From the IMG/VR virus record IMGVR_UViG_3300023174_000074, positions 32,001-96,000 of that record: a stretch of DNA of 64,000 nt, one strand, 5' to 3'. Within the stretch, counting starts at the first letter, position 1, and every line of letters starts with the position of its first letter. The position numbers were made by a program, and so were the translations under genes. The notes beneath the pieces were generated by a model. The model ran no database searches. It had not been told where the DNA came from and saw only the letters and a list, made by a program, of their open reading frames with translations. The stretch is from a virus. This document shows positions 24,873-62,022 of the stretch, piece after piece.

Positions 24873-24963
24873 TAACGGTGGCGATTGGCGAAGTAAAAGC
24901 CTTGCACTACCGTTGATGTTCAGCACTACACTTGATGGCTTTTATTTTGCCAATTGCGTGTTA
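24873..24963 (-). repeat. orphan attC-like site A
   Basis: TAAC-GGTG-GCGATTGGCGAAGTAAAAGCC...GGCTTTTATTTTGCCAATTGC-GT-GTTA. Confidence 0.8.
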
Positions 24964-25015
24964 GCGGTTCGGGCTTCTCCGCTTTTAGAAGTCCAAAATT
25001 TAATAACAAAAAAAA

Positions 25016-25246
25016 ATGAAAAGAGAATTTAATGTTTACAAAAGTTGGTTCGCTGGATTTAGAGCAAAAGATTTGTTTCCAATATTCAGTTTTACCAAAA
25101 ATGTTCAAGGCTGGTTTTTTACTCGTGTATGGTCATTGAATTGGTTTACTTACGCTTTGTCGTTTAGTTTGACAAAAACAAGCGATTTGAACGAAGATAG
25201 AAGTTTGTCACACGAGAAAAATGTCAAACGGTATATGCTGTCTTAG
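25016..25246 (+). CDS. cassette-encoded hypothetical protein
   Basis: inside GTTAGCGGTTCGGGC...GCCTGACCGCTAAC. Confidence 0.6.
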   Translation: MKREFNVYKSWFAGFRAKDLFPIFSFTKNVQGWFFTRVWSLNWFTYALSFSLTKTSDLNEDRSLSHEKNVKRYMLS

Positions 25247-25255
25247 CCTGACCGC

Positions 25256-25304
25256 TAACGGATTGCAGCTATGCGCTCGTTTTAATGGCGCATAGGTGCT
25301 GTTA
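25256..25304 (-). repeat. orphan attC-like site B
   Basis: TAAC-GGATT-GCAGCTATGCGC...GCGCATAGGTGC-T-GTTA. Confidence 0.8.
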
Positions 25305-49816: not shown

Positions 49817-51258
49817 GTAAAGTTAAAAAAAAACCAATAATAGATTTAGAATCTCTTAACACGGATCAGAAGACAGCTTTTGAAGATTTAAGGGATTTCG
49901 TTTGTGATAAGGGAGATGATAGCGTCTATGTGCTAAAAGGTTGGGCAGGAACAGGAAAGACCTATTGTGTGAGTGTGCTTGTCAGATATGTGCTCGAGGT
50001 GATACACCCGACACATAATTGGTATAGAATAGCAGTTACAGGACCAACCAATAAATCAGTGAGGGTTATTAAAAAAACCAGCGGGCTGAAAAATCCTAGG
50101 GTTTCGTTTCAAACCATTCATAAAATGCTTGGTCTAACCGAAAGGATAACCAAAGAAGGTGTACAGGAATTTGTTAATCAAGGGGATTTCCAACCAAAGA
50201 TAAAGACGGTAAAGCTACTTATTATCGACGAGGTTTCGATGCTGAATGATGATCTGTTTCAAGAAGTATTAAAATACAGAGACAAGATAAAAATTATCTG
50301 CATGGGAGATCCTGCACAGATTCCCCCTGTAGGTAAACCCGATTGTATTCCTTTTAGAGAAGAGCTTGCTGCAGGCTATAGAATTAAAACTCTTAGTCTA
50401 AAACAGATCATGCGTCAGAAGAAAGATAATGCTATTATCGAATCATCTGTGGCTATTAGATCTGAATTAGGTAGAGCTAAAAATCCAGTTGAACCCGTTA
50501 CAAAGCTAAATGAGAAAGGTGAAGGAATAGAATTTCTTAATCTCAATATTCCTGAGACAAGAAAAGGATTCTCAGAAATACTGAGACGATATTTTGTCAC
50601 CGATGAATTTAAAAAAGATTCTGAGTATGCAAAGATCATTGCATGGAGAAATAAAACTGTTGCAACCATGAATGATGTTATTCGTAAAGTTATCTACGGA
50701 GACGAAGCATTAGGATCAAAGATATTGGTTGGGGAAAAACTAATCGCAAACAATCCGATCATTCAAGGTGAGTCAATAGTTCTGAACACCAACGACGAAT
50801 TCAGTGTGGATAGTTTTACTATCGGTAGCGATGATCTTAGATATCACATATCAGATCAACCCGATGCCGAACCATTTCCAATAACACTAAAGTATTATGA
50901 AACTGTTGTTAGCTATCTTGATGATGAGGATGAAACGGTAAGGGTTAACATACAAATTCTACACGAGGACAGCGAGATGGATTTTAAAAAGCTGGCTAAT
51001 ATTCTAAAGCTTAGAGCTATAGAAAAGAAAGGCAAAGATAAAAGCTGGATAGTGTACTACAACTTTCTTAGAAAGTATGCTGATGTGAATTATGCTTATT
51101 GCACTAGCGCACACAAATCACAGGGAAGCACATACAATACAACATTTGTTCTGGAGGATGACATAAATCAAAATTTTAATATAATTGAAAAAAATAGAAT
51201 ACTTTATACCTCCTATACTAGAGCCAGTAGAAAGCTGTATGTACTTAGAAGATTTTAG
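49813..51258 (+). CDS. dda: Dda-like SF1B DNA helicase
   Basis: GWAGTGKT, IIDEVSM, GDPAQIPPV, HKSQGSTY, YTSYTRA. Confidence 0.9.
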   Translation: MSKVKKKPIIDLESLNTDQKTAFEDLRDFVCDKGDDSVYVLKGWAGTGKTYCVSVLVRYVLEVIHPTHNWYRIAVTGPTNKSVRVIKKTSGLKNPRVSFQTIHKMLGLTERITKEGVQEFVNQGDFQPKIKTVKLLIIDEVSMLNDDLFQEVLKYRDKIKIICMGDPAQIPPVGKPDCIPFREELAAGYRIKTLSLKQIMRQKKDNAIIESSVAIRSELGRAKNPVEPVTKLNEKGEGIEFLNLNIPETRKGFSEILRRYFVTDEFKKDSEYAKIIAWRNKTVATMNDVIRKVIYGDEALGSKILVGEKLIANNPIIQGESIVLNTNDEFSVDSFTIGSDDLRYHISDQPDAEPFPITLKYYETVVSYLDDEDETVRVNIQILHEDSEMDFKKLANILKLRAIEKKGKDKSWIVYYNFLRKYADVNYAYCTSAHKSQGSTYNTTFVLEDDINQNFNIIEKNRILYTSYTRASRKLYVLRRF

Positions 51259-52424
51259 AATCTACCCAAACTCCATCCGTCACTAATATATTTATCGATT
51301 TCTTGCACATCAACCCTAACTGATTTTTTTGATTTATTTATCCATTTTTTACCCCTTGATGAATTTCCCATGCCTTTTCGACTTTCGTCAGTGATATTTA
51401 ACTTATCTTTATCAACGATTCTTCCCAAACACCATCCCTGACATATCCATTTTTCTAGTTGGTCAGCCTTAACCTTTTTATTTTTATCAAAGCAATTATT
51501 TATCCAGATGGTATTTTTATGAACATTGCTCATTTTTAATTTAGCATCCGTTGATCTTTTCATCCCCTTACTTACGTGTCTCAATTCTCCAGATTCCAAT
51601 CTAGGATCATCTATTTTAACCCTCATTCCGTTACCGCTAACATCTTTAACTGGTATTGTTCCCTTAGTAACACCCTGTAATTCACCGGATATAAATCGAG
51701 GATCATTTCGATCCAATATTAAATTTTTGCCTCCATCCTTAACAACTACTTTATGTGTAAATTTATGAATTAGCTCACCACTTTTTAATCTTGGATCGTC
51801 GGTTTTTATTCTTATGTTATTACCATTTTTATCATTTACACATACTGTTCCTTTTATTATACCTGTCATTTTTTCATTTTTGAATTCGTCCTTATTAACA
51901 TAACGAATAATTCCATTTTTATCCCTTCCTACAGCATTGTTACAATGTATACTTTTTAGATCACCATTAAGATAATTAGGATCATCGGTTGAAACCTGTT
52001 GGGTCTTTCCCTCCCCGTCCTTAACAGTAACATATCCTGTTGATATAAATATTAATTCTCCGCTTAAGTACTCTGGATTATTAACTGAGGTCTGAAACGT
52101 ATCCCCTTTTTTATTTCTAACCGTGACAACTCCACAGCTTCCCCCTCCACCACCACCTAAAGTGATATTATATACATTTTCATTTAATATAAATTCGTTA
52201 CTTACTAGTTCTTTTTCTTTTTCTAACATTTTATTTCTACTATCAAAATCATACAATATAATTTTTTTAAATTTCTCTATTCCGTATTTTTTAATAGCTA
52301 GTTTAATTAATTTACCTGATCCCATATAGTTATCATTAATATTATATGTGGAATGACACCCAATATAGATTTTACTATTTACTAGATTTAATATTAAATA
52401 AATCAGATGATGTTTTTTCGCCAT
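51255..52424 (-). CDS. GIY-YIG homing endonuclease (Seg-like) with repeated DDPR..SGEL units
   Basis: LIYLILN...IYIGCHST...YMGSG. Confidence 0.85.
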   Translation of the reverse strand: MAKKHHLIYLILNLVNSKIYIGCHSTYNINDNYMGSGKLIKLAIKKYGIEKFKKIILYDFDSRNKMLEKEKELVSNEFILNENVYNITLGGGGGGSCGVVTVRNKKGDTFQTSVNNPEYLSGELIFISTGYVTVKDGEGKTQQVSTDDPNYLNGDLKSIHCNNAVGRDKNGIIRYVNKDEFKNEKMTGIIKGTVCVNDKNGNNIRIKTDDPRLKSGELIHKFTHKVVVKDGGKNLILDRNDPRFISGELQGVTKGTIPVKDVSGNGMRVKIDDPRLESGELRHVSKGMKRSTDAKLKMSNVHKNTIWINNCFDKNKKVKADQLEKWICQGWCLGRIVDKDKLNITDESRKGMGNSSRGKKWINKSKKSVRVDVQEIDKYISDGWSLGRF

Positions 52425-52456
52425 TTTGTTAGTTTATATATATATATATATCTAAC

Positions 52457-52521
52457 TATAGAATCGAATATACAGCCTACACCAGGCGAGTAAGAAAGTT
52501 TACGTCATGAGAAGATTCTAG
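52457..52521 (+). pseudogene. displaced duplicate of dda 3' end
   Basis: YRIEYTAYTR-(1-nt deletion)-SKKVYVMRRF* versus NRILYTSYTRASRKLYVLRRF*. Confidence 0.75.
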
Positions 52522-53312
52522 TAGCTTTCTCTGATACGGATAAACTTGCAGTCAAGAAATTCCTCGATAGCCTTTTGTCTTAGTCTATCCTTTTCTTTTA
52601 ATTCGTCATTTATATAGTGGTATTTTTCGTCCCATTCATAAACTGTGTTATTTTCTTTATCATATCCATCTACCCAATATCCAAGTTCTTTAACGTGAAA
52701 TTCACACCCGTTTTCTGCGTGTTGAATTCTAATCCCGGTTTCTTCCATTAGCTTATTAAAGTACTCGCAGCCTTTTTTGCTATATGGAGGATGGAATTTT
52801 TTATCGATTGCTTTAAGCTTATCAATAAAAATTACTCTTAGCTTTTTCCTAGTCTCCTCGTTATGGTGTTTCCCGAATTTAGTATCTCTTAATGAATTTT
52901 CCCAATTAGTTCTATGCTCATCACTCATCTTCTTTCCTTTATTCCATGGCGTGCTTGATCCCCATTCGGTATCTTTAATCCCATTCTTCCAATTGCTCTT
53001 ATATTCTTCACTCATTGGCTTACCCTTATTCCAAGGTTCATATCCTTCCTTGTGTACATAAGCCCAGCCCACAGCATTTGGTTGAACTTTCTTGCTGCAG
53101 CTTTTACCGCAATGTTCTCTGTATCCCTTAGCTATATTATTAAATGAAGCTTCCCTATCACACTGCTTGCATTTTATCTTCTCCCCATTTAAAACGTATT
53201 GATCATAATAATCCTTGGTATCTATTTTATGGTTCTGTTTTATGTGACTTCCGAATCCGTTATTTGACTTTGTTTCGAATCCGCATATCTTACATTTCTT
53301 GATATCTTCCAT
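52518..53312 (-). CDS. homing endonuclease-like protein (Zn finger, NUMOD3, PD-(D/E)XK/Vsr-like nuclease)
   Basis: CKIC..H..H, PWNKGK repeats, HAENG.E...YWVDGYD...YEWDEKYH. Confidence 0.78.
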   Translation of the reverse strand: MEDIKKCKICGFETKSNNGFGSHIKQNHKIDTKDYYDQYVLNGEKIKCKQCDREASFNNIAKGYREHCGKSCSKKVQPNAVGWAYVHKEGYEPWNKGKPMSEEYKSNWKNGIKDTEWGSSTPWNKGKKMSDEHRTNWENSLRDTKFGKHHNEETRKKLRVIFIDKLKAIDKKFHPPYSKKGCEYFNKLMEETGIRIQHAENGCEFHVKELGYWVDGYDKENNTVYEWDEKYHYINDELKEKDRLRQKAIEEFLDCKFIRIRESY

Positions 53313-53580: not shown

Positions 53581-53667
53581 TAACGGTTGGGTATATGTGA
53601 AGTACCTTACCACAAAACTTAAAAATTAAATAGAAACTTTAGGAGGTATTTCACATATACCTTGTTA
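53581..53667 (-). repeat. attC-like site 1
   Basis: TAAC-GGTTG-GGTATATGTGAAGTACCT...AGGTATTTCACATATACC-TT-GTTA. Confidence 0.85.
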
Positions 53668-53682
53668 TAACTCGTTTTAATT

Positions 53683-53925
53683 ATGACTCGATTTGAAAGA
53701 AAAAACAGAACTGAAATAGTTTATAAAGGATTCGGTGGTATTACCGATGCTTTTGACGATATGTATAAACAACTTTGGAGAATAAATGATGAAGAATATA
53801 ATTATTTATGTGAAACACTTACTGATGAAGAATTGAGTGATATTACGCCAGAATTTAAAACTATATCTCAAATAAAAAAAGCGATAACAATAGTAAATAC
53901 GGCTCTTTCTAAAAATGAGTTATAA
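53683..53925 (+). CDS. cassette 1 hypothetical protein
   Basis: stop is the TAA of next TAAC. Confidence 0.7.
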   Translation: MTRFERKNRTEIVYKGFGGITDAFDDMYKQLWRINDEEYNYLCETLTDEELSDITPEFKTISQIKKAITIVNTALSKNEL

Positions 53926-54011
53926 CGGTTGAGTGTATGTGTAGGTTTTTTGAAATTAAACTTTAATATATACTAAAAACTAAATAAAAAACTTACATAT
54001 ACACCTTGTTA
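53923..54011 (-). repeat. attC-like site 2
   Basis: TAAC-GGTTG-AGTGTATGTGTAGG...CTTACATATACACC-TT-GTTA. Confidence 0.85.
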
Positions 54012-54065
54012 TGTGCCGTTTTTTCTTATGGACTTCAAATTATTAATTTTTAAAATAAACAAAAT

Positions 54066-55133
54066 ATGAATTTAGCAAGTGTACAAAAAGTAATCAAATT
54101 AACCCCAATTGAGGGTGCAGATTTGATAGAAACAGCAACCGTATTAGGTTGGGAAATTGTAGTAAAAAAAGGCGAATACAAAGTGGGTGACTTATGTAGT
54201 TACATTCAGATTGATACAGTAGTTCCCGAACTACCCGAATATGAATTTTTAAGGGAACGGAAATTTAGAGTAAGAACAATCAAATTGCGTAAACAAATTT
54301 CGCAGGGGCTTGTAGTTCCTTTACCTAATGGTAAATGGAAAGAAGGCGATGATATTACAGAGGTTTTGGGAGTAAAGAAATACGAGAAGCCAGACAATAA
54401 CCCAGAACGCTATGAGAAGCCAAGAATGTCTAAAAAATGGTATAAGAAATGGATTTACTTGTTTAAATATAATTTCCTTTTCAAGTTGTTCCCAAAATTA
54501 CAAAGGTTAAGCCGTTCTCCATTCCCTAAAAATTTGGTATCAATTACCGATGAAGAAAGAATACAAAATATACCACATGTATTACAACAATACGCTGGTA
54601 AATTATTTGTAGTAAGCTATAAACTTGATGGTAGTAGTATTACAATAATTCATTCAAAGGTTTTTGGTAAAAGTAAGTTTAGAATTTGCAGTAGAAGATT
54701 TGAATTGCACGACAAAAAAAATGATTGGTACAAAGTATTTACTGATACTAATTTTAAATATGAAATTGCAAAACTTGTAAAGCACTTTAAAACTGATGAT
54801 ATAATTGTACAAGGCGAAGCAATAGGCAAATTTAACGGCAACCACCACAACTTACAAAAAGAGCAAATTAGGTTGTTTAATATCAATGTAAACGGCAAAA
54901 GATTAAACCAACAGGAATTTATAAAAACTTGTTTGGCAAATAATATTCCACATTGCCCAATGTATAAGGAAATTGTTTTAAATCACTCTTTACCCGAAAT
55001 ATTGGCTTTGTCTGAAATTAAAGACGTGATTAATCCATCAGTAGATGTTGAGGGTTTAGTTTGGCGTTGCGTTGAAGATAATTTAAGTTTCAAAGTGATA
55101 AACAATAAATATCTTCTTAAAAACAATGAGTAA
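54066..55133 (+). CDS. cassette 2: RNA ligase, DRB0094/Rnl5-like
   Basis: LASVQKV..PIEGAD.IE, KLRKQISQGL, TDEERIQN, KLDGSS, EGLVWR, FKVIN. Confidence 0.88.
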   Translation: MNLASVQKVIKLTPIEGADLIETATVLGWEIVVKKGEYKVGDLCSYIQIDTVVPELPEYEFLRERKFRVRTIKLRKQISQGLVVPLPNGKWKEGDDITEVLGVKKYEKPDNNPERYEKPRMSKKWYKKWIYLFKYNFLFKLFPKLQRLSRSPFPKNLVSITDEERIQNIPHVLQQYAGKLFVVSYKLDGSSITIIHSKVFGKSKFRICSRRFELHDKKNDWYKVFTDTNFKYEIAKLVKHFKTDDIIVQGEAIGKFNGNHHNLQKEQIRLFNINVNGKRLNQQEFIKTCLANNIPHCPMYKEIVLNHSLPEILALSEIKDVINPSVDVEGLVWRCVEDNLSFKVINNKYLLKNNE

Positions 55134-55157
55134 CGGGGTGTTTCCTAAAATGGCACA

Positions 55158-55205
55158 TAACGGTTGAGTGTAAAAAATCGTTTTAATGTTTTTTACACTT
55201 TGTTA
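55158..55205 (-). repeat. attC-like site 3
   Basis: TAAC-GGTTG-AGTGTAAAAAA...TTTTTTACACT-TT-GTTA. Confidence 0.85.
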
Positions 55206-55233
55206 TAAGTATGTAAAACAAAAATTATACAAT

Positions 55234-55401
55234 ATGAAAGAAAAAATTGAAAATAGGTTAAAAGAGTTATATGATGAATACAAACATGTAACTGATAAAG
55301 ATAGAGTTTGGATTAAACAAACAGGTGGTTTAACAAGAAGAGAACGAATTGAAAAATGTAAAATTCTAATAGAAGAGTTAGAAACATTATTAAATTCATA
55401 A
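55234..55401 (+). CDS. cassette 3 hypothetical protein
   Basis: ORF within about 27-bp complementary cassette ends. Confidence 0.6.
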   Translation: MKEKIENRLKELYDEYKHVTDKDRVWIKQTGGLTRRERIEKCKILIEELETLLNS

Positions 55402-55419
55402 TTTTTGTTTTATTACTTA

Positions 55420-55536
55420 TAACGGTCACAGATATATGTAGTTGTTTAACACAAAACTTAAATAATATGAATAAAGATAAAAATTTAGAACAAAACTTGG
55501 ATAAGAGTAATAAAAAATTACATATATCTGATGTTA
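55420..55536 (-). repeat. attC-like site 4
   Basis: TAAC-GGTCA-CAGATATATGTAG...TTACATATATCTG-AT-GTTA. Confidence 0.85.
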
Positions 55537-55739
55537 GTTGTAGTATTGATGATATTAAAAAATGGGTTGATAGTGAAATTGGTTACTATGACGAATGTGA
55601 TACTGTTGAAGATGCGATTGATGATATGTTACATGATTTCAAAACACATTTTTTAAATATTGATTACACAAAGAAATTTGATAAGGAAAACGAACTTATA
55701 AAATACTTCAAAAGTGAGTGGGAACAATATTACAACTAA
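55467..55739 (+). CDS. cassette 4 hypothetical protein
   Basis: starts in hairpin loop (LHISDVS), stops at TAAC. Confidence 0.7.
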   Translation: MNKDKNLEQNLDKSNKKLHISDVSCSIDDIKKWVDSEIGYYDECDTVEDAIDDMLHDFKTHFLNIDYTKKFDKENELIKYFKSEWEQYYN

Positions 55740-55862
55740 CGGTTTGCAGATAGGCGAAGGCAAGGATTTAGAAAACAAAAATTTAACTTTAAAATAGAAT
55801 TTAATATGAAAAAGAAATCATCATTTTACCACAACACCCTTGCTTTTGCTTATGTGCTGTTA
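55737..55862 (-). repeat. attC-like site 5
   Basis: TAAC-GGTTT-GCAGATAGGCGAAGGCAAGG...CCTTGCTTTTGCTTATGTGC-T-GTTA. Confidence 0.85.
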
Positions 55863-55991
55863 GTTGCAGTTTTTTTGTGGGTGGCAATTTCAAGCACCAT
55901 TCAAAGGTTCAAATGTGCTAAACTTACTGAAACAGAAATATTTATTAGAATACCAAAGTCTTTTGTGTGCGATTGGGCAAATTGCAACTAA
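55806..55991 (+). CDS. cassette 5 small membrane protein
   Basis: TM helix; starts in loop, stops at TAAC. Confidence 0.65.
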   Translation: MKKKSSFYHNTLAFAYVLLVAVFLWVAISSTIQRFKCAKLTETEIFIRIPKSFVCDWANCN

Positions 55992-56113
55992 CGGTTGATG
56001 CTTGGTGCAGTTGCGAAATTGAACGATAAACTTAATTAAAAAACGGAAACATGAATTGGATTAAAAATATTTTTAGAAAACGGAAACAAGCAATTGCATC
56101 CAAGCATTTGTTA
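55989..56113 (-). repeat. attC-like site 6
   Basis: TAAC-GGTT-GATGCTTGGTGCAGTTGC...GCAATTGCATCCAAGCATT-T-GTTA. Confidence 0.85.
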
Positions 56114-56311
56114 GCGGCTGGGCTGGAGTTTAGACGAACATCTCTTGGTCAAGCTGCATTTATTCCGAAAGGCACAACAAGTAATTATGCTGATAAAATA
56201 ATGTTCCCCGACAATTGGAGTAGAGCAGAATTTAGAGCAATGGCAGATTACATGGATGCGTTTCCTGACTGCACATTATTTTCAGATGGAAGTGGTAAGC
56301 CTTGCCGCTAA
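56051..56311 (+). CDS. cassette 6 hypothetical protein
   Basis: starts in loop, stops at TAAC. Confidence 0.65.
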   Translation: MNWIKNIFRKRKQAIASKHLLAAGLEFRRTSLGQAAFIPKGTTSNYADKIMFPDNWSRAEFRAMADYMDAFPDCTLFSDGSGKPCR

Positions 56312-56433
56312 CGGTTGGGTATAAATGAAGTGCCGATTTTGAAAAACAAATGTTCAATTAAAAACAAAAGATAAAATGGAAAACAAAAGTTCAATTACAG
56401 ACGAAAGTAAGGCATTGCAACAAGCCGATGTTA
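56309..56433 (-). repeat. attC-like site 7 (poorly paired arms)
   Basis: TAAC-GGTTGG...GTGCC...GGCATTGCAACAAGCCG-AT-GTTA. Confidence 0.7.
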
Positions 56434-56621
56434 GCAGCAGTGCGAGGTATATAATTGTTGATGAAAGCGTTTCAGCACATTGTTGTTTTGAATGCACAAT
56501 AATTGATACCGCAGCAGGTAAAGAAGCTTATGGTGATTACTGGAAGCGTTCAATGTGCGAAACATTCGACAGGGCAGAAGCTGAAATTATATGTGATGCG
56601 CTCAATAAGCATTTCTGCTAA
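56376..56621 (+). CDS. cassette 7 hypothetical protein
   Basis: ALQQADVS arm-encoded motif; SAHCCFE...ICDALN. Confidence 0.7.
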   Translation: MENKSSITDESKALQQADVSSSARYIIVDESVSAHCCFECTIIDTAAGKEAYGDYWKRSMCETFDRAEAEIICDALNKHFC

Positions 56622-56706
56622 CGATTTCGGGCTTGGCGAAGTGCCGCTACTCGAAACTTGAATTTTAGCACTAACTGTCCTGCGGCATTTTGCCAAACCC
56701 GTGTTA
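56619..56706 (-). repeat. attC-like site 8
   Basis: TAAC-GATTT-CGGGCTTGGCGAAGTGCCGC...GCGGCATTTTGCCAAACCCG-T-GTTA. Confidence 0.85.
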
Positions 56707-56754
56707 TGGGATAGTTTTAAAAACCTTTTAGGGTGGGCATTTAAAAACGAAATA

Positions 56755-57213
56755 ATGATAATAGCGATTGATTTTGATGGAACTTGCGTAACACACGAAT
56801 TTCCAAAAGTGGGCAAAGACATTGGTGCTGTGCCTGTATTAAAAGAGTTGGTTAAAAATAACCACCAATTAGTTTTGTTTACAATGCGAAGCGACATAGT
56901 TAATCCAACGGGAGAGGACAATGAATTGCACCTTGAAAGCGGAAACTATTTAACTGATGCAATTGATTGGTTTAAACAAAACGAAATACCACTTTACGGA
57001 ATACAAACCAACCCGATACAGCACACTTGGACTACAAGCCCGAAAGCATACGCACAACTTTACATTGATGATGCTGCTTTAGGATGCCCACTTTTGGTTG
57101 ACATTGTAAAAGATGGTGACGAAAGTATTAAGCAAGTTGGCAGACCTTATGTTAATTGGGAAAAGGTAAAAGAAATGCTAATTGATAAAGGGATTATTGA
57201 TGATGAAGACTAA
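56755..57213 (+). CDS. cassette 8: HAD-superfamily hydrolase (BT0820-like)
   Basis: IAIDFDGT, LFTMR, SPKAYAQLYIDD. Confidence 0.82.
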   Translation: MIIAIDFDGTCVTHEFPKVGKDIGAVPVLKELVKNNHQLVLFTMRSDIVNPTGEDNELHLESGNYLTDAIDWFKQNEIPLYGIQTNPIQHTWTTSPKAYAQLYIDDAALGCPLLVDIVKDGDESIKQVGRPYVNWEKVKEMLIDKGIIDDED

Positions 57214-57248
57214 CCCGTGCGGTGGGAAAAGGTTTTTAAAATTTCCCA

Positions 57249-57375
57249 TAACGTTTTGCAGCTATGCCCAGTTGGGCAATTTTAAAGACAAAATAATCAA
57301 CTTAAAATAAAGTAAATATGGAACACGAAAATATTAACAAACAAGAAGATGCCCAATTGGGTATAGGTGGTGTTA
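57249..57375 (-). repeat. attC-like site 9
   Basis: TAAC-GTTTTG-CAGCTATGCCCAGTTGGGCA...TGCCCAATTGGGTATAGGTG-GT-GTTA. Confidence 0.85.
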
Positions 57376-57530
57376 GCATCAGTGCCTTAACGGAATGGCT
57401 TAAAAGCGAATCTGTTTATACAGCATTGAGGTACGCATCAAAGAACCCATCAAATAGCGGTATGGATAATTGTGAAGATAAAAGTTATTTACATCTATAC
57501 AATTTAATTTGTCAGATTCGTAGGCATTGA
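57318..57530 (+). CDS. cassette 9 hypothetical protein
   Basis: starts in loop (QLGIGGVS). Confidence 0.65.
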   Translation: MEHENINKQEDAQLGIGGVSISALTEWLKSESVYTALRYASKNPSNSGMDNCEDKSYLHLYNLICQIRRH

Positions 57531-57533
57531 TGC

Positions 57534-57613
57534 TAACGGTTGCGGATATGAGAAGGGAAAAAATACCAATGAAAAATAAACAAGAATTTTTTACTTTCTT
57601 ATATCCGTTGTTA
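57534..57613 (-). repeat. attC-like site 10
   Basis: TAAC-GGTTG-CGGATATGAGAAGG...CTTTCTTATATCCG-TT-GTTA. Confidence 0.85.
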
Positions 57614-57679
57614 TCGGTCTGGTTTGGTTTCAATTTTTGTGCTGAGGGTTTAGAATTTCATCATTAAATAAATATACAA

Positions 57680-57943
57680 ATGGAAAACAATAATTGCATA
57701 GTAGAGAAAAAATTTCTGTTCTGGAAATGGAAAGCGGTGGAGCATCATTACAAGATGCACCGAATAAGTAAATTCATGGATTGCTCAACATCATTCCATG
57801 TTGATTGGGTATGTAAGTGCGGGGCAAGGTGGGAACAGAAATTTGTTGAACAGGACGAATTATTGTTGAAAGGAATATCAACTGAAATTCTAAATAAGAT
57901 TGACGGTTGGCATTCGCACTACTGCGGGAAGGAAAAAAATTGA
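57680..57943 (+). CDS. cassette 10 hypothetical protein
   Basis: ORF within complementary cassette ends. Confidence 0.65.
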   Translation: MENNNCIVEKKFLFWKWKAVEHHYKMHRISKFMDCSTSFHVDWVCKCGARWEQKFVEQDELLLKGISTEILNKIDGWHSHYCGKEKN

Positions 57944-57958
57944 AACCAAACTTGCCGA

Positions 57959-58084
57959 TAACGTTCCAAGTATTGCCGATGGTGGGGCATTACACCACCA
58001 AAGTTCAATTAACAAACTAAAGTTCAAAATATGCACACAGATTCAAAAAAGCACGAAACCCCCACTATTGGCAATACTTTGTTA
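57959..58084 (-). repeat. attC-like site 11
   Basis: TAAC-GTTCC-AAGTATTGCCGATGGTGGGG...CCCCACTATTGGCAATACTT-T-GTTA. Confidence 0.85.
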
Positions 58085-58321
58085 TATGCTGTTAAAAATG
58101 GGCAGTTGAAAAGGTGGTTTTACGAGTTTAAACACGGACACCCATTTCTACTTGACGAAGAAGCTACTATAATTGTTTCTACAAGATTAAGTGATAAAAG
58201 TGCTTCTTGGATGAATGATGAACAGATTAAAGAACTCGTAAAACTTAGAGTGAAAGCAATGTATAAAAAGAAATTTCCAAATGCAAAACGGTGGTCGTTG
58301 CCCATTTTTAATTGCATATAA
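58031..58321 (+). CDS. cassette 11 hypothetical protein
   Basis: starts in loop, stops at TAAC. Confidence 0.65.
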   Translation: MHTDSKKHETPTIGNTLLYAVKNGQLKRWFYEFKHGHPFLLDEEATIIVSTRLSDKSASWMNDEQIKELVKLRVKAMYKKKFPNAKRWSLPIFNCI

Positions 58322-58445
58322 CGGTTGAGGATTTATTTAGTTGCGAATAAAAAATTACAAAATATGATAACAGAAGAACAGTTGAAAAAAGCAGAAAAAG
58401 TTATTGCTGACTACAAAGCCGAGCAATTGAATAAATCCTATGTTA
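58319..58445 (-). repeat. attC-like site 12
   Basis: TAAC-GGTTG-AGGATTTATTTAGTTGC...GCAATTGAATAAATCCT-AT-GTTA. Confidence 0.85.
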
Positions 58446-58600
58446 TAAAATCGTTTCCGAGCGATGATGAAATACATAAGGAATCGTTGAGGGTGTGCAG
58501 GATAGAGGCAGAGTTTGTGCAAGGGGTAGCGTGGTGCTATCACGATAAAGGAGCAAAATGGATGATGGAAGAACTAAAGAAGCGAGGAAATGTTTTATAA
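58364..58600 (+). CDS. cassette 12 hypothetical protein
   Basis: starts in loop, stops at TAAC. Confidence 0.65.
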   Translation: MITEEQLKKAEKVIADYKAEQLNKSYVIKSFPSDDEIHKESLRVCRIEAEFVQGVAWCYHDKGAKWMMEELKKRGNVL

Positions 58601-58686
58601 CGGTTTTGGTGTATGAGAAGGTTTGCTTAGATAAATTTTCAAATTACAACTGAACTTAACAGCAAACTTTCTTATACACCTTGTTA
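58598..58686 (-). repeat. attC-like site 13
   Basis: TAAC-GGTTTT-GGTGTATGAGAAGGTTTGCT...AGCAAACTTTCTTATACACC-TT-GTTA. Confidence 0.85.
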
Positions 58687-58750
58687 TACACAGTGCGGTT
58701 TATTTGGTAGAAACTTTAATTAAAAAACAAATATAAAAAAATTAAAAATT

Positions 58751-59128
58751 ATGAAAAATTATTTATTGACAGATTTTAATACTGAAAGATGGAAAGGTAT
58801 TAATATAGAAAGTGCAGAAACACAAGTAGAAAAATTGAATGAAAAAATTAATAAAATTGGATGTTTATTTGGTGAAATAGGGAATCCAGAAACATTTGAG
58901 ATTTCGTTATCAAGAGCATCACATTCAATTAAAAATTTAACTTTTGTAGATGGTAAAGTTTATGGTGATGTTGAATTTTTGAATAATGATAACGGAAAAC
59001 AAGCAGACAATTTTATTAATAATATGAATTGTATATTTGGAATAAGAAGCACAGGAACATCAGAACAATATAAAGATGGTGAAATAGTTATCCATTCAAT
59101 TTTTACTTGGGATGTAATCAATGACTAA
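58751..59128 (+). CDS. cassette 13: T4 gp21-like prohead protease homolog, catalytic motifs altered
   Basis: FGEIGNP...LSRASHSI...G.VEFLN...GK...FGIRSTG. Confidence 0.6.
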   Translation: MKNYLLTDFNTERWKGINIESAETQVEKLNEKINKIGCLFGEIGNPETFEISLSRASHSIKNLTFVDGKVYGDVEFLNNDNGKQADNFINNMNCIFGIRSTGTSEQYKDGEIVIHSIFTWDVIND

Positions 59129-59174
59129 TAATTTTTAATTTTTATTAGATGAACTTGATTAGAAGTAGAAATGT

Positions 59175-59205
59175 AGCATTGTGTATAACTATTATATATA
59201 AGTAA
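59175..59205 (-). other. putative attI-like site (crossover core TAAC 59186-59189)
   Basis: last cassette end GCATTGTGTATAAC not followed by a hairpin, 16 bp before integrase. Confidence 0.6.
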
Positions 59206-60036
59206 GTGTACCATAAACCATTTAATATCAACACTTTGAATCAAAAAATTATAAAGATTTGTGAGGAAAAGTTTATATATTTAAACTACTCACCAAGAAC
59301 AAAAGACAATTATATGTGTCATATTAAAGATTTTCTTAATACTCTTAATGACAAACAGATAATTCATTGTAGTTCCAAAGATTTTCAATCATATCTAGAT
59401 AATTATCAATTCACCTCTGTTTCTCAACAAAACCAGGTTATTAACGCTATTAGATTTCTGTATAAGTACGGACTTGATAAGAAATACGATAAGGTATCGT
59501 TTAAAAGACCAAAATCGGAAAAGAAGCTACCCAGAGTTATTGATGGTGAATTTATAAAAGAAAAACTAAACAAGATTGGTAATCTGAAACACAAAGCAAT
59601 CTTAACACTAACCTATTCAGTTGGATTAAGGGTGTCTGAAATAGTTAATCTAAAGATTGAAGATATTGACTCAAAAAGGATGCTTATACACATCAAAAAC
59701 GCAAAAGGCAGAAAGGATAGGATAGTTCCGCTGTCATTAACTGTTTTAACTTTGCTAAGAGAATATTTTAAAGAGTATAAACCTTCAGATTATCTTTTTA
59801 ATGGGCAAAATTCTTCATTGTATTCAATACGAAGCTGTCAGCAAATTTATAAAAAATACATTGATGACGGGTCATCAATACATACACTAAGGCATTCCTC
59901 TTTCACCAACCTATTAGAATCAGGAACTGATCTAAGGATTATTCAAAAAATAGCAGGTCATTCCAGCTCTAAAACAACAGAAATTTACACACACGTCTCA
60001 AATAGTCTTTTAAGTAGGATAAAACTTCCAATTTAA
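59206..60036 (+). CDS. tyrosine recombinase/integrase (IntI-related, no IntI-specific insertion)
   Basis: YSPRTKDNY SAM-like N-terminus; GLRVSE, KGRKDR, HTLRHS, AGH, TTEIYTH. Confidence 0.92.
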   Translation: MYHKPFNINTLNQKIIKICEEKFIYLNYSPRTKDNYMCHIKDFLNTLNDKQIIHCSSKDFQSYLDNYQFTSVSQQNQVINAIRFLYKYGLDKKYDKVSFKRPKSEKKLPRVIDGEFIKEKLNKIGNLKHKAILTLTYSVGLRVSEIVNLKIEDIDSKRMLIHIKNAKGRKDRIVPLSLTVLTLLREYFKEYKPSDYLFNGQNSSLYSIRSCQQIYKKYIDDGSSIHTLRHSSFTNLLESGTDLRIIQKIAGHSSSKTTEIYTHVSNSLLSRIKLPI

Positions 60037-60561: not shown

Positions 60562-60886
60562 AGGCGAAGATCGAAGATGGTATGCTGATCTTCCGGAGTA
60601 TATTGCTCAAGGAGGAACAGAGGAGGAGTGCGAGATGGTAGCAGGAGCTGATGATTGGCTGGATTTCATTTCAGAAAACAGAGAAGCTGTTACATTAGCT
60701 TTATCGGATCAGGATTCGCTAACAGAGAAAATAGTTCTATACGAGAGTGACGAATCCGGAGCTACTTACATAGCTCACACTTTCAAGGGGGAAGATATTA
60801 ACCAAATACTTTGGCTTTGCTCAGTTACAGTTTTTGTATTTGGTCATTACCCAAAAGAAATATATTATCGCGTAATAAGAGAATGA
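60536..60886 (+). CDS. DUF6717-like protein
   Basis: WYADLP, MVAGADDWLD, WLC.V..VFG.YP..IY. Confidence 0.65.
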   Translation: MTMVIRFYKGEDRRWYADLPEYIAQGGTEEECEMVAGADDWLDFISENREAVTLALSDQDSLTEKIVLYESDESGATYIAHTFKGEDINQILWLCSVTVFVFGHYPKEIYYRVIRE

Positions 60887-62022
60887 AATACGATTTAAAC
60901 ACATTAAATGACTATATTGAGCGTGGACTTCTGATCAAGAATTCTCACCCAACTCTGCCTATAGACATCTATAACTATTCTAGAGATTGCCAATTTTCGC
61001 AATTGTGGGATGAAATCACGTTAAATATGAGGGGTACGGTTTTAGATCGTGAGGGTAACATTGTGGCTAGATCTTTTCCTAAGTTCTTCAACATGGAAGA
61101 GCATAAGCCGGAGGAAATTCCAAATGAGGAGTTTGAAGTGTTCGAAAAAATGGACGGATCATTAGTAATTCTTTTCCACTATGAGAGCGAATGGCATTTG
61201 GCTACCAGAGGATCTTTCGTTTCTGAGCAGGCAATAAGGGGTAAAGAAATCCTAAAAAAATACAGATATGAGAGACTGATCCCAGGATTTACCTATCTGT
61301 TCGAGATCATCTATCCCGAAAACAGGATCGTGTGCAACTATGACTATGAGGACTTAATACTTCTTGGGGTAATTGATAACAAAGATGGTTATGAACTTAG
61401 AATCCACCATAATAGCATACATTTAGAGGGTATTAGATTTGTTAATATGTACAACAATCTAGGATTTAAGATTGTTAAAAAATACGATGGTGTTCAGGAT
61501 TACAAGCAACTGAAATCTATTATCGAGAATAATGCAGAAGGATTTGTAATCAAATTCAAATCTGGATTCAGAATGAAGATTAAAGGGGAGGAGTACGTCA
61601 GGTTACATAGGTTGATAACAAACTTCTCAAACGTTGATATCTGGGAGCTGTTAAAAGACGGAAAGAATGTCGACGAGTTTCTAGATAGAGTTCCTGATGA
61701 ATTTGATAAATGGGTTAAGAGAACGATTCGTGATTTAAAGTACAGTAAATACGCAATTGGTGAGAGAGCAGGTAAGGTCCACGATTACTTTAGATATGGT
61801 AAATACAGTGACCGCGAAACAGAGCCTACTAAAAAAGAGTTTGCCGAGCATCTAGAATTTTGTAAGGTTGAGCCAAGCATAAGATCTATATGTTTTGCAA
61901 TGTGGGATAGAAAGGACTATGATCACATTATATGGAAAATGCTAAAGCCAAAATATCAAAAACCTTTCTGGAATAAGGAAGAAGAAATTCCAACAGATTC
62001 AAAATGGATTAAAAAAGATTAA
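60883..62022 (+). CDS. T4 Rnl1-family RNA ligase
   Basis: KFFN, EKMDGS, ATRGSF, FEIIYPENRIV, EGFVI, KIKGEEY. Confidence 0.9.
   Translation: MKYDLNTLNDYIERGLLIKNSHPTLPIDIYNYSRDCQFSQLWDEITLNMRGTVLDREGNIVARSFPKFFNMEEHKPEEIPNEEFEVFEKMDGSLVILFHYESEWHLATRGSFVSEQAIRGKEILKKYRYERLIPGFTYLFEIIYPENRIVCNYDYEDLILLGVIDNKDGYELRIHHNSIHLEGIRFVNMYNNLGFKIVKKYDGVQDYKQLKSIIENNAEGFVIKFKSGFRMKIKGEEYVRLHRLITNFSNVDIWELLKDGKNVDEFLDRVPDEFDKWVKRTIRDLKYSKYAIGERAGKVHDYFRYGKYSDRETEPTKKEFAEHLEFCKVEPSIRSICFAMWDRKDYDHIIWKMLKPKYQKPFWNKEEEIPTDSKWIKKD

Follow-up and report, generated by a model that had tools for sequence, protein, structure and literature searches.

Organization of the locus

The window, that is, the whole 64-kb stretch of DNA that was analysed, originates from a large uncultured lake phage (jumbo phage) and contains an array of small genes adjoining the gene of a small recombinase. 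As read from the sequence, the array comprises 13 units at positions 53581-59189, each consisting of a hairpin site and one + strand gene. Every site (13/13) has TAAC at its 5' end, a stem-loop, and GTTA at its 3' end. The exact sequence TAACGGTT is present in nine copies, all on the + strand and within the array, with none elsewhere in the 64 kb. The array opens with the hairpin of cassette 1, with backbone further left, and closes at a TAAC at 59186 that lacks a hairpin and lies 20 nt 5' of the recombinase ORF. Both edges had been described in this way in the first-pass annotation, whose observation of the array was confirmed. The GC content of the cassettes ranges from 22 to 39%, as compared to 34% for the genome record.

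All cassettes and their ORFs are on the + strand. Cassette 1 (53581..53925) carries the left-most hairpin (site 53581-53667, 87 nt) and an 80-aa ORF (53683-53925) starting 3' of the site. Cassette 2 (53923..55160; site 53923-54011, 89 nt) encodes an RNA ligase of 355 aa (54066-55133; PF21189 and PF09414). Cassette 3 (55158..55422) has a site of the short class (55158-55205, 48 nt) with the loop TCGTTTTAATG, followed by a small ORF (55234-55401; 55 aa counted from the second ATG). Next are cassette 4 (55420..55739; site 55420-55536, 117 nt; ORF 55467-55739, 90 aa), cassette 5 (55737..55991; site 55737-55862, 126 nt; ORF 55806-55991, 61 aa), cassette 6 (55989..56311; site 55989-56113, 125 nt; ORF 56051-56311, 86 aa) and cassette 7 (56309..56621; site 56309-56433, 125 nt; ORF 56376-56621, 81 aa). 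The ORF of cassette 8 (56619..57251; site 56619-56706, 88 nt) encodes 152 aa from the ATG (56755-57213; phrog_1238). Cassette 9 (57249..57536; site 57249-57375, 127 nt; ORF 57318-57530, 70 aa) precedes cassette 10 (57534..57961; site 57534-57613, 80 nt), the 87-aa ORF of which (57680-57943) starts 3' of the site, cassette 11 (57959..58321; site 57959-58084, 126 nt; ORF 58031-58321, 96 aa) and cassette 12 (58319..58600; site 58319-58445, 127 nt; ORF 58364-58600, 78 aa from the ATG). Cassette 13 (58598..59188; site 58598-58686, 89 nt; ORF 58751-59128, 125 aa) extends to the hairpin-less TAAC and has complementary ends.

ORFs 1, 4, 5, 6, 7, 11 and 12 end with the TAA that belongs to the TAAC of the following hairpin; their number agrees with the seven noted before. 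ORFs 2 and 8 stop in internal TAACs (55131 and 57211), which are not cassette ends; end complementarity places the true ends of these cassettes at 55158 and 57249.

The recombinase gene (59206..60036, + strand, 276 aa as listed) encodes a tyrosine recombinase of the Xer/IntI-like type; its true start may be located a few codons 3' of the listed one. The ORF is intact and the catalytic positions (RHR-H-Y) align with XerA. The protein lacks the IntI-specific insertion (31 aa vs 79 aa in VchIntIA) and scores 145 bits against the IntI model, below the cut-off of 265 bits. IntI is reported to use this insertion for folded attC sites, so that recombination of hairpins by the phage enzyme is an extrapolation. 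Between array and gene lies the attI-like junction (59186..59205, + strand), which consists of TAAC followed by TATTATATATAAG.

Site structure and proposed translation starts

Folded as single-stranded DNA, 12 of the 13 window sites form a single long stem; the exception, owing to its degenerate arms, is site 7. Compensatory double changes are present in 16 of 18 predicted stem pairs when 39 medium-size sites, taken from the window and from related phages, are aligned. With strand-symmetric scoring, the stems of 319 unique sites contain 465 G.T/T.G pairs vs 37 A.C/C.A pairs, which identifies the coding strand as the structured strand; the + strand gives the more stable fold in 295 of these sites. 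The 14 nt 3' of each GTTA are complementary to the 14 nt 5' of the next TAAC. The complementarity score is 9.0 for the two ends of the same cassette, but 4.9 for the flanks of one hairpin and likewise for random pairs; scores of at least 10 were obtained for 143, 5 and 2 of 293, respectively.

Start codons within the hairpin loop had been proposed for seven cassettes, and ATGs are indeed present there, at 55467, 55806, 56051, 56376, 57318, 58031 and 58364 (cassettes 4, 5, 6, 7, 9, 11 and 12). The reading of the right arm in two frames relative to GTTA was likewise recovered, GTT being a codon in cassettes 4 (where the arm encodes LHISDVS), 7, 9 and 12, and its G the third base of a codon in cassettes 5, 6 and 11. 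A motif AAACTT(A/T)A recurs in loops, 12-20 nt 5' of the ATG. In related loci an ATG within the site followed by an ORF of at least 40 codons beyond GTTA occurs at 112 of 363 sites, vs 8 of 338 in antisense. In one hairpin family all 12 sites have an in-loop ATG that is open for at least 51 codons through the arm, and 11 of them share a leader of about 22 aa in front of unrelated proteins; the leader of cassette 4 also heads unrelated proteins in other phages. The PHROG match of ORF 7 begins at residues 15-22, with residue 22 aligned to position 2 of the profile, directly after the leader. In cassettes 4 and 7 the next in-frame ATG is found only past the middle of the ORF. These patterns suggest that translation starts at the loop ATGs.

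Related phage loci

From 216 recombinase relatives in viral contigs, 80 loci were kept. Upstream DNA of 1.5 kb or more is available for 55 loci, 50 of which have at least two sites in the 3 kb that precede the recombinase gene; in total 382 sites are located upstream vs 22 downstream. The junction motif, TAAC followed by TATNATATATA, lies directly upstream of the recombinase together with an array in 73 of 76 related loci, the sequence right of TAAC being conserved and that left of it variable. In 283 of 292 unique phage units the longest ORF is on the bulged strand of the site. Arrays change in content while the surrounding backbone is conserved: locus L034, a close relative, is 85-95% identical in the backbone on both sides, with entirely different cassettes, and homology starts again 8 nt 5' of the junction TAAC.

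The first-pass annotation had predicted that each gene travels with its upstream hairpin, and comparison of the same cassettes across phages bears this out. Homologous cassette genes whose neighbours are not homologous form 19 pairs, for which the mean hairpin identity is 0.81 upstream and 0.55 downstream; the upstream hairpin is ahead by more than 0.1 in 13 pairs and the downstream one in a single pair. Two pairs depart from the expected pattern, one having retained both hairpins and one neither. Three nucleotide alignments show identity from the (A)TAAC of the upstream hairpin until the TAACG of the next site. In 14 stringent shared segments the diverging left ends fall at TAAC in 10 cases, at GTTA in none and at neither in four; the right ends fall at TAAC in eight cases, near GTTA in one and at neither in five. 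Phages with recombinases 61% and 66% identical have cassettes in common at 100% (315 nt) and 99.4% (495 nt) identity, and the entire cassette 11 (57958-58326) is also present in locus L058 with 83% identity. Near-identical cassettes in diverged phages span one TAAC to the next and thus include the upstream hairpin and exclude the downstream one. Together with the terminal hairpin-less TAAC and its conserved right flank, this upholds the earlier definition of a cassette as hairpin plus gene. The ends of the shared segments map the crossover, formerly proposed at TAA|C, to within the four bases of TAAC.

Related arrays in bacteria

In bacterial assemblies, mostly from Bacteroidota, sites of this family accompany Xer-like recombinases homologous to that of the phage. 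These enzymes also lack the IntI insertion; apart from one partial match at 67%, they are 41-54% identical to the phage enzyme along most of the sequence. Phage and bacterial arrays have in common TAACG, the 5-nt spacer, sites of about 125 nt and about 70 nt, and the G.T bias of one strand (64 vs 15 in bacteria). In bacteria this is the non-coding strand: the longest ORF is opposite to the bulged strand in 20 of 21 units, the gene polarity of classical integrons, and the array is found 3' of the recombinase gene, as opposed to its upstream position in phages. Opposite gene polarity within the same site family indicates that the phage cassettes are truly inverted, in agreement with the earlier claim that their ORFs are reversed relative to classical integrons. 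A literature search yielded no published account of these bacterial arrays.

Proposed mechanism and alternatives

The array is probably an integron-like platform with which a jumbo phage captures and shuffles genes, operated not by IntI but by a small Xer-like recombinase; the reading of its units as inverted, hairpin-first cassettes is supported. On the + strand a unit consists of C, a spacer of about 5 nt, a stem of 17-23 bp, the loop, the returning stem, a 1-2-nt spacer and GTTA, followed by an end sequence of about 14 nt, the gene, the complementary 14 nt and TAA. The phage recombinase would catalyse strand exchange inside the four bases TAAC, where the cut may be TAA|C by analogy with the AA|C cut of integrons, and its substrate would be the folded single + strand, which bears the bulge and the G.T pairs. 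Recombination of two successive sites would release a cassette circle, in which the two cassette ends could pair to give a longer hairpin, and the circle would be inserted at the attI-like site adjoining the recombinase gene, in its TAAC. Since the structured strand also carries the coding sequences, which face the attI-like site and the recombinase, each hairpin precedes its gene. In the site class of about 125 nt the loop would provide the start codon and the right arm the end of an N-terminal leader of about 20 aa, so that such a cassette would bring its own translation start. No published description of this inverted-cassette phage system was found in a literature search.

It is unlikely that the hairpins are regulatory intergenic motifs (promoters, terminators or translation signals) resembling promoter-early stem-loops (PeSLs) and shuffled by homologous recombination next to an ordinary phage integrase with another job. 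Whole hairpin types, including the AAACTT(A/T)A loops, are 75-95% conserved between phages while the genes differ, the mRNA of the phage has the sequence of the structured strand, so that the hairpins may act at the RNA level, and recombination by the enzyme is a prediction. Recombinase and junction motif nevertheless adjoin the array almost throughout, the breakpoints of common cassettes fall in a 4-5-nt core between unlike flanks, which is too short for homologous exchange, and the pairing of a cassette's own ends would have no role. In bacteria the G.T-biased strand is non-coding and recombinases stand alongside, which points to DNA rather than RNA. Sigma-70-type promoters are not enriched (23 vs 32.9 expected), although the promoter type of the host may differ, and neither are terminators (5 vs 3.0 expected). 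A real cassette system that is inactive in this phage and kept for useful genes or hairpins is quite improbable. Site 7 is degenerate, and the contigs of four public runs, which yielded fragmentary pieces only, gave neither a circular junction nor an excision variant; against this, the recombinase is intact, all other sites fold, the same backbone carries an altogether different array in a relative whose recombinase is 95% identical, and diverged phages have identical cassettes.

That the loop ATGs are idle, with true starts 3' of GTTA and with arm-spanning open frames that are by-products of the site sequence, is very unlikely. Six of the 13 window cassettes do begin after the site, and variability at the three codon positions of the leader loops (0.35, 0.25 and 0.46; 53 columns) is weakly coding-like. 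The excess over antisense, the common leaders on unrelated proteins, the late internal ATGs of cassettes 4 and 7 and the profile match of ORF 7 all speak for use of the loop ATGs. We give hardly any credence to the canonical polarity, in which the + strand corresponds to the integron top strand, a cassette is a gene with its downstream hairpin, the crossover is G|TTA and the loop ATGs belong to the preceding cassette. The + strand order of gene and TAAC...GTTA resembles the usual drawing of an ORF followed by attC, and the longer spacer is on the TAAC arm, equivalent to the arm with the extrahelical bases in top-strand drawings of attC. This polarity is contradicted by the comparative data, namely by the linkage of genes to the upstream hairpin, by an array that begins with a hairpin and ends with a gene and a hairpin-less TAAC beside the recombinase, and by the bacterial arrays, in which genes and site polarity are related in the opposite way; under this polarity recombination would moreover split every loop-started ORF.

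Comparison with known systems

As far as described in the available text of Cury et al. 2016 (PMC4889954) and Neron et al. 2022 (PMC9024848), sedentary chromosomal integrons, with IntI, attI and attC arrays, resemble the inverted phage cassettes in that a tyrosine recombinase gene adjoins an insertion site, next to which single-gene cassettes are arrayed in one direction. The palindromes between cassettes are imperfect in both, with covarying stems and AAC...GTT cores, the ends of a cassette can pair solely when it is circular, folding favours one strand, and array content changes within a conserved backbone. The phage system differs in its host, a jumbo phage, and in a recombinase without the IntI-specific insertion that falls under the IntI model cut-off. 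Its genes are on the structured strand and face the insertion site, so that a platform promoter could not drive them; its site precedes the gene, can hold start codon and leader codons, and owes its asymmetry to spacers of 5 nt vs 1-2 nt next to the core.

Clusters of attC without IntI (CALINs) are reported in phage genomes, and some of the phage sites served IntI1 as recombination substrates when assayed (Qi et al. 2023, PMC9892861). They resemble the present array in having attC-like sites and small cassettes in genomes of virulent phages, including a Polaribacter phage, but the available text of that report describes no partner recombinase, attI-like junction, inverted gene polarity or start codon inside the site (PMC9892861).

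PeSL cassettes are found in T4-type phages (PMC2839356, PMC4122927). To the extent that these accounts cover them, they have conserved stem-loops that border small accessory genes in the hyperplastic regions of large phages and delimit the modules that are shuffled; the motif precedes the gene and carries expression signals, as here. The phage array differs from them by its linked recombinase, 4-nt junction core, attI-like site and own-end complementarity. PeSLs are thought to act by homologous recombination, and we know of no dedicated recombinase for them.

Among Xer systems, which also comprise dif modules, integration of CTX phage by XerCD uses a folded single-stranded DNA hairpin; an Xer-type recombinase without the IntI insertion can thus use such a substrate. 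CTX phage integrates once, into the dif site of its host, whereas the present locus holds a cassette array, and the site sequences are unrelated.

Array structure and putative recombination sites

The region from 53581 to 59189 holds 13 sites, each starting with TAAC, ending with GTTA and followed by a single ORF. All 13 ORFs lie on the + strand and are directed at the gene of a 276-aa Xer-like tyrosine recombinase (59206-60036, + strand), 20 nt upstream of which a final TAAC at 59186 stands without a hairpin. The exact sequence TAACGGTT occurs nine times in the window, always on the + strand and always within the array.

Features of the attC type are present in these sites, namely TAAC...GTTA cores (13 of 13), a single-stranded fold with one stem of 17-23 bp (12 of 13, the exception being site 7 at 56309-56433) and covariation, as seen in 39 diverse sites of medium size from the window and related phages, where double changes preserve 16 of 18 predicted pairs. 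A G.T pair occupies one stem position in 36 of these 39 sites. Canonical attC sites show two extrahelical bases, an unpaired central spacer and a variable terminal loop; single extrahelical bases of that kind were not identified in the phage sites. The spacers next to the cores are asymmetric, with 5 nt on the TAAC side in 242 of 319 sites and 1-2 nt on the GTTA side in 284 of 319. By length the sites form three classes, of about 48, 88 and 125 nt, and the loop of the short class is almost invariant (58 of 60). Rfam returned only two sub-threshold microRNA-precursor matches. Both are on site 1, reach 26.8 and 24.1 bits where the gathering scores are 90.8 and 86, and were put down to chance. 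Site 13 gave no blastn match among deposited phages.

Recombinase and adjacent junction

The recombinase contains the domains PF00589 and PF13495. Its best recombinase model is of the archaeal XerA type (176 bits, cut-off 220), and the IntI model TIGR02249 scores 145 bits (cut-off 265). Among solved structures its best relatives are XerA, IntI4 and XerD; the top one, XerA (4a8e), aligns in one piece, and the conserved Arg, His-x-x-Arg, His and Tyr positions coincide with those of XerA. The alignment to VchIntIA (2a3v) is in two pieces, with query residues 188-218 (31 aa) facing residues 181-259 of the chain (79 aa); the IntI insertion is therefore absent from the phage protein. No relative above 60% identity was found in deposited phages.

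Viral contigs yielded 216 relatives of the recombinase, of which the best 80 were fetched (59-96% identity, contigs up to 362 kb) and searched for sites with a purpose-made detector. Among these best 80 of 216, at least two sites lie within 3 kb upstream of the recombinase in 50 of the 55 loci whose upstream DNA extends for 1.5 kb or more, so that a tyrosine recombinase of the Xer/IntI branch adjoins the array there as it does in the window; in the same set 382 sites are upstream and 22 downstream of the gene. Some related loci, among them L033 (18274-20559), L067 (8947-11519) and L085 (11633-13045), have extra arrays of the same sites several kb downstream of the recombinase.

TAAC followed by the motif TAT-N-ATATATA precedes the recombinase gene in 73 of 76 loci among the best 80 of the 216 relatives, and the bases to the left of this TAAC vary by locus. 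The related locus L034, whose recombinase is 95% identical, matches the left backbone of the window at 85-95% up to 51257; homology resumes at 59178, 8 nt before the junction TAAC, and a different, shorter array lies between. The comparison suggests that the junction at 59186 is an attI-like insertion site next to the recombinase gene, at which the array would begin. From the conservation of the junction, the L034 match and the shared-cassette comparisons described below, the exchange point falls within the four-base core TAAC. Immediately after this core hairpins have G and the junction has T, and the base preceding it is variable. The first-pass annotation had placed the crossover at TAA|C; exchange within TAAC is borne out, while the comparison resolves the four-base core and no single position in it. 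The sequence ATTGAA, considered as a general left boundary representing a displaced half of the insertion site, was discarded, since only 3 of the 45 candidates carry it.

Cassette boundaries and exchange

The proposal that a cassette consists of a hairpin plus the gene that follows it was examined in 19 pairs of homologous cassette genes with non-homologous neighbouring genes. Mean hairpin identity is 0.81 upstream of the gene and 0.55 downstream; the upstream value exceeds the downstream one by more than 0.1 in 13 of the 19 pairs, with the opposite in one. Two pairs are misfits, one having kept both hairpins and the other neither. In three nucleotide alignments identity begins at the (A)TAAC of the upstream hairpin and ends at the TAACG of the next site. 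Fourteen unique shared segments (at least 93% identity, diverging flanks) have left ends at TAAC in ten cases, at GTTA in none and at no landmark in four, and right ends at TAAC in eight, near GTTA in one and at no landmark in five. Gene pairs, alignments and shared segments agree that a gene moves together with its upstream hairpin. For this reason a transposon-like model, in which the hairpins stay fixed and gene bodies flanked by terminal inverted repeats insert between them, was rejected. Cassettes are shared at 100% and 99.4% identity between phages whose recombinases are just 61% and 66% identical, which indicates recent cassette movement between diverged genomes.

The two ends of a cassette are complementary to each other. 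In 293 unique units, the 14 nt that follow GTTA were compared with the complement of the 14 nt that precede the next TAAC; on average 9.0 positions match, against 4.9 for the two flanks of one hairpin and 4.9 for random pairs; scores of at least 10 were reached by 143 own-end pairs, 5 pairs of hairpin flanks and 2 random pairs. A full site thus arises only when the two ends of a cassette are joined. Together with the identical cassettes in diverged phages, this gives indirect evidence that cassettes may be excised and inserted as circles by the recombinase. In seven window ORFs, as the first reading of the sequence had it, the TAA of the following hairpin's TAAC is the stop codon. The RNA ligase gene and ORF 8 also end in a TAAC, in their case an internal one (at 55131 and 57211, respectively). 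These two were considered as ends of hairpin-less mini-cassettes and rejected, since the 14-nt complementarity puts the cassette ends at 55158 and 57249; both internal TAACs serve as stop codons only.

Twenty entries among public reads cover part of this stretch, and Logan contigs of X3-X6 were compared. The contigs are in pieces of 200-1200 nt, broken at hairpins. Their listed joints are unreliable, the sides measuring 21-29 nt, or 50 nt for a single joint that goes back. In X4, X5 and X6 a loose end precedes 53923; provided that these contigs continue into gene 2, it may reflect another cassette in front of hairpin 2.

Structured strand and bacterial arrays

When the non-Watson-Crick pairs of the stems are counted with strand-symmetric scoring, G.T/T.G positions number 465 and A.C/C.A positions 37, and the + strand fold is the more stable one in 295 of 319 sites. 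The G.T bias, the spacer asymmetry and the fold stability identify the + strand as the structured strand. The same strand is also coding, serving as the sense strand in 283 of 292 phage units.

Genome contigs scanned with the phage recombinase contain relatives of equal length with 41-54% identity over most of their length, and 67% in one partial match. Bacteroidota assemblies account for most of them, and other phyla are named in some titles. In these bacterial arrays the recombinase gene has the sites on its downstream side, and on the gene strand it is the TAAC side that has the short spacer. In 20 of 21 intervals between sites the genes share the strand of the recombinase. Viewed on the other strand, the bacterial sites begin with TAACG(T/G)TT and a 5-nt spacer, like the phage + strand. 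The bacterial G.T bias (64 versus 15) likewise sits on the strand opposite the genes, which is non-coding; by bias and site polarity the structured strand is the template strand. The non-coding position of this bias argues that it reflects folding of DNA and not of mRNA. Bacterial arrays in this respect resemble classical integrons, whereas in phage arrays the structured strand is the sense strand. The reversal of the phage ORFs, each following its site and facing the junction, accordingly holds beyond the window.

These bacterial arrays with the same recombinase family are the nearest relatives of the phage system, and no publication on them was found. Recombinase relatives, some with adjacent sites, also occur under the title Desulfitobacterium, in a complete chromosome that bears 5 sites of about 70 nt, and in archaeal MAGs (contigs L143, L167, L155 and L110). 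These occurrences may mean that the family is not confined to Bacteroidota, or that phage contigs are present in the bins.

Predicted translation starts within sites

In the window sequence, ORFs 4, 5, 6, 7, 9, 11 and 12 have an ATG inside the site and read through its right arm, in two frames relative to GTTA, as first annotated. Among 363 unique sites, 112, mostly of the 125-nt class, have an in-site ATG with an ORF of at least 40 codons past GTTA (antisense, 8 of 338), and 73 of the 112 read GTT as a codon. Eleven other loci contain a hairpin of the cassette 4 type, and all 12 sites have the in-loop ATG and an open frame. A leader ending in ISDV, or HVSDV in one case, is common to 11 of the 12, and past the leader the 12 proteins are mostly unrelated. 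In ORF 7, position 2 of one PHROG profile aligns to residue 22, so homologues elsewhere start where the leader ends. Codon-position variability in the unpaired part of the leader is weakly coding-like. On these grounds the site appears to supply a predicted translation start and a common leader for the loop-started cassettes.

The motif AAACTT(A/T)A is common to the loops of the long and medium classes in the window and related loci. It frequently lies 12 or 19-20 nt ahead of the loop ATG and could be a phage promoter or translation signal. Promoters of the sigma-70 type are not enriched (23 versus 32.9 expected; the host promoter type may differ), and a terminator scan gave no enrichment.

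Comparison with known systems

Integrons are the textbook case of recombination on folded single-stranded DNA, an ability credited to the extra domain of IntI. The PeSL of T4-type phages combine a stem-loop with a host-type early promoter and are not known to need a dedicated recombinase. Among published systems these motifs are the nearest phage analogue, from which the phage array differs by its linked dedicated recombinase. An IntI-specific additional domain near the integrase C-terminus was reportedly described by Messier and Roy in 2001. Neron et al. 2022 (PMC9024848) likewise give IntI integrases an additional domain near the C-terminus, and for Bacteroidetes they mention only In0 elements from earlier work and one complete integron, in Salinibacter. 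According to Cury et al. 2016 (PMC4889954), an integron cassette is a gene followed by attC, and the genes point away from attI and are expressed from the platform promoter. Phage attC clusters without integrase, some recombined by IntI1, are described by Qi et al. 2023 (PMC9892861).

The phage array shares with integrons a recombinase of the Xer/IntI branch beside the array, sites of the attC type and an attI-like junction. It differs in that the phage recombinase has no IntI-specific domain, and in that the order gene-then-attC, directed away from attI, is replaced by site-then-gene, directed toward the junction. The phage array would work like an integron and is a variant of the integron kind; it is not filed as an integron because the IntI insertion and the gene-then-attC polarity, two defining features, fail. 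The recombinase partner, the inverted polarity and the in-site start codon were nowhere described in the literature consulted; related sites may be among those tabulated in the supplements to Cury et al. 2016 and Qi et al. 2023.

The window sequence and the related loci confirm what the first-pass annotation had observed and support its overall interpretation. A wider reading, for and against which we see the balance as about even, is that a second integron lineage, based on a Xer-like recombinase without the IntI domain, is common to Bacteroidota-type bacteria and their large phages, and that the phages flipped the gene polarity. The hairpin would then be a portable expression head (start codon, leader of about 20 aa, perhaps a promoter) that travels with its gene, so that cassettes would be self-expressing wherever they landed and start-less protein bodies could be captured in frame. 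If this is true, phage and host cassette pools use the same chemistry read in opposite directions, a widespread cassette system of this logic with a plain Xer-like recombinase would show the extra domain of IntI to be dispensable, and a second, independent model of hairpin-site reading exists. Expression would not need to depend on the distance to a platform promoter, because the site itself would supply the start and the shared leader; one leader on unrelated proteins would touch the question of how new cassettes originate. Jumbo phages would possess a dedicated mechanism for fast turnover of small accessory genes, in keeping with identical cassettes despite recombinase identities of 61-66%.

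Genomic neighbourhood and cassette content

The window spans bases 32001-96000 of the source virus record (126.8 kb, 46% complete according to CheckV). The record is that of a large phage, and nearly all window ORFs of at least 100 aa are on the + strand. Neighbours of the array include RNA ligases and GIY-YIG/NUMOD3 endonuclease-like genes. Cassette 2 encodes an RNA ligase (54066-55133; PF21189 and PF09414). A second, different RNA ligase (60883-62022; PF09511) belongs to the backbone just past the recombinase, both ligases lying within 7 kb. PHROGs matches were obtained for two cassette ORFs only: ORF 8 matches phrog_1238, labelled phosphoheptose isomerase, and ORF 7 matches PHROGs of unknown function. 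Pfam gave no family for 10 small cassette ORFs, and ten small ORFs are without a family in Pfam and PHROGs. The GC content by cassette is 22-39%, that of the whole record 34%.

A second mini-array without a recombinase is located 28 kb upstream (24873-25304). It consists of a medium-size site (24873-24963), an ORF (25016-25246) in a cassette with complementary ends, and a site of the short class with the invariant loop (25256-25304); a closing end for a unit after this last site was sought and not found. Between the conserved backbone and the main array, two endonuclease-like genes (GIY-YIG/SegE-like and NUMOD3) occupy 51255-53312 on the - strand. L034, whose backbone homology ends at window position 51257, lacks these two genes at the same place.
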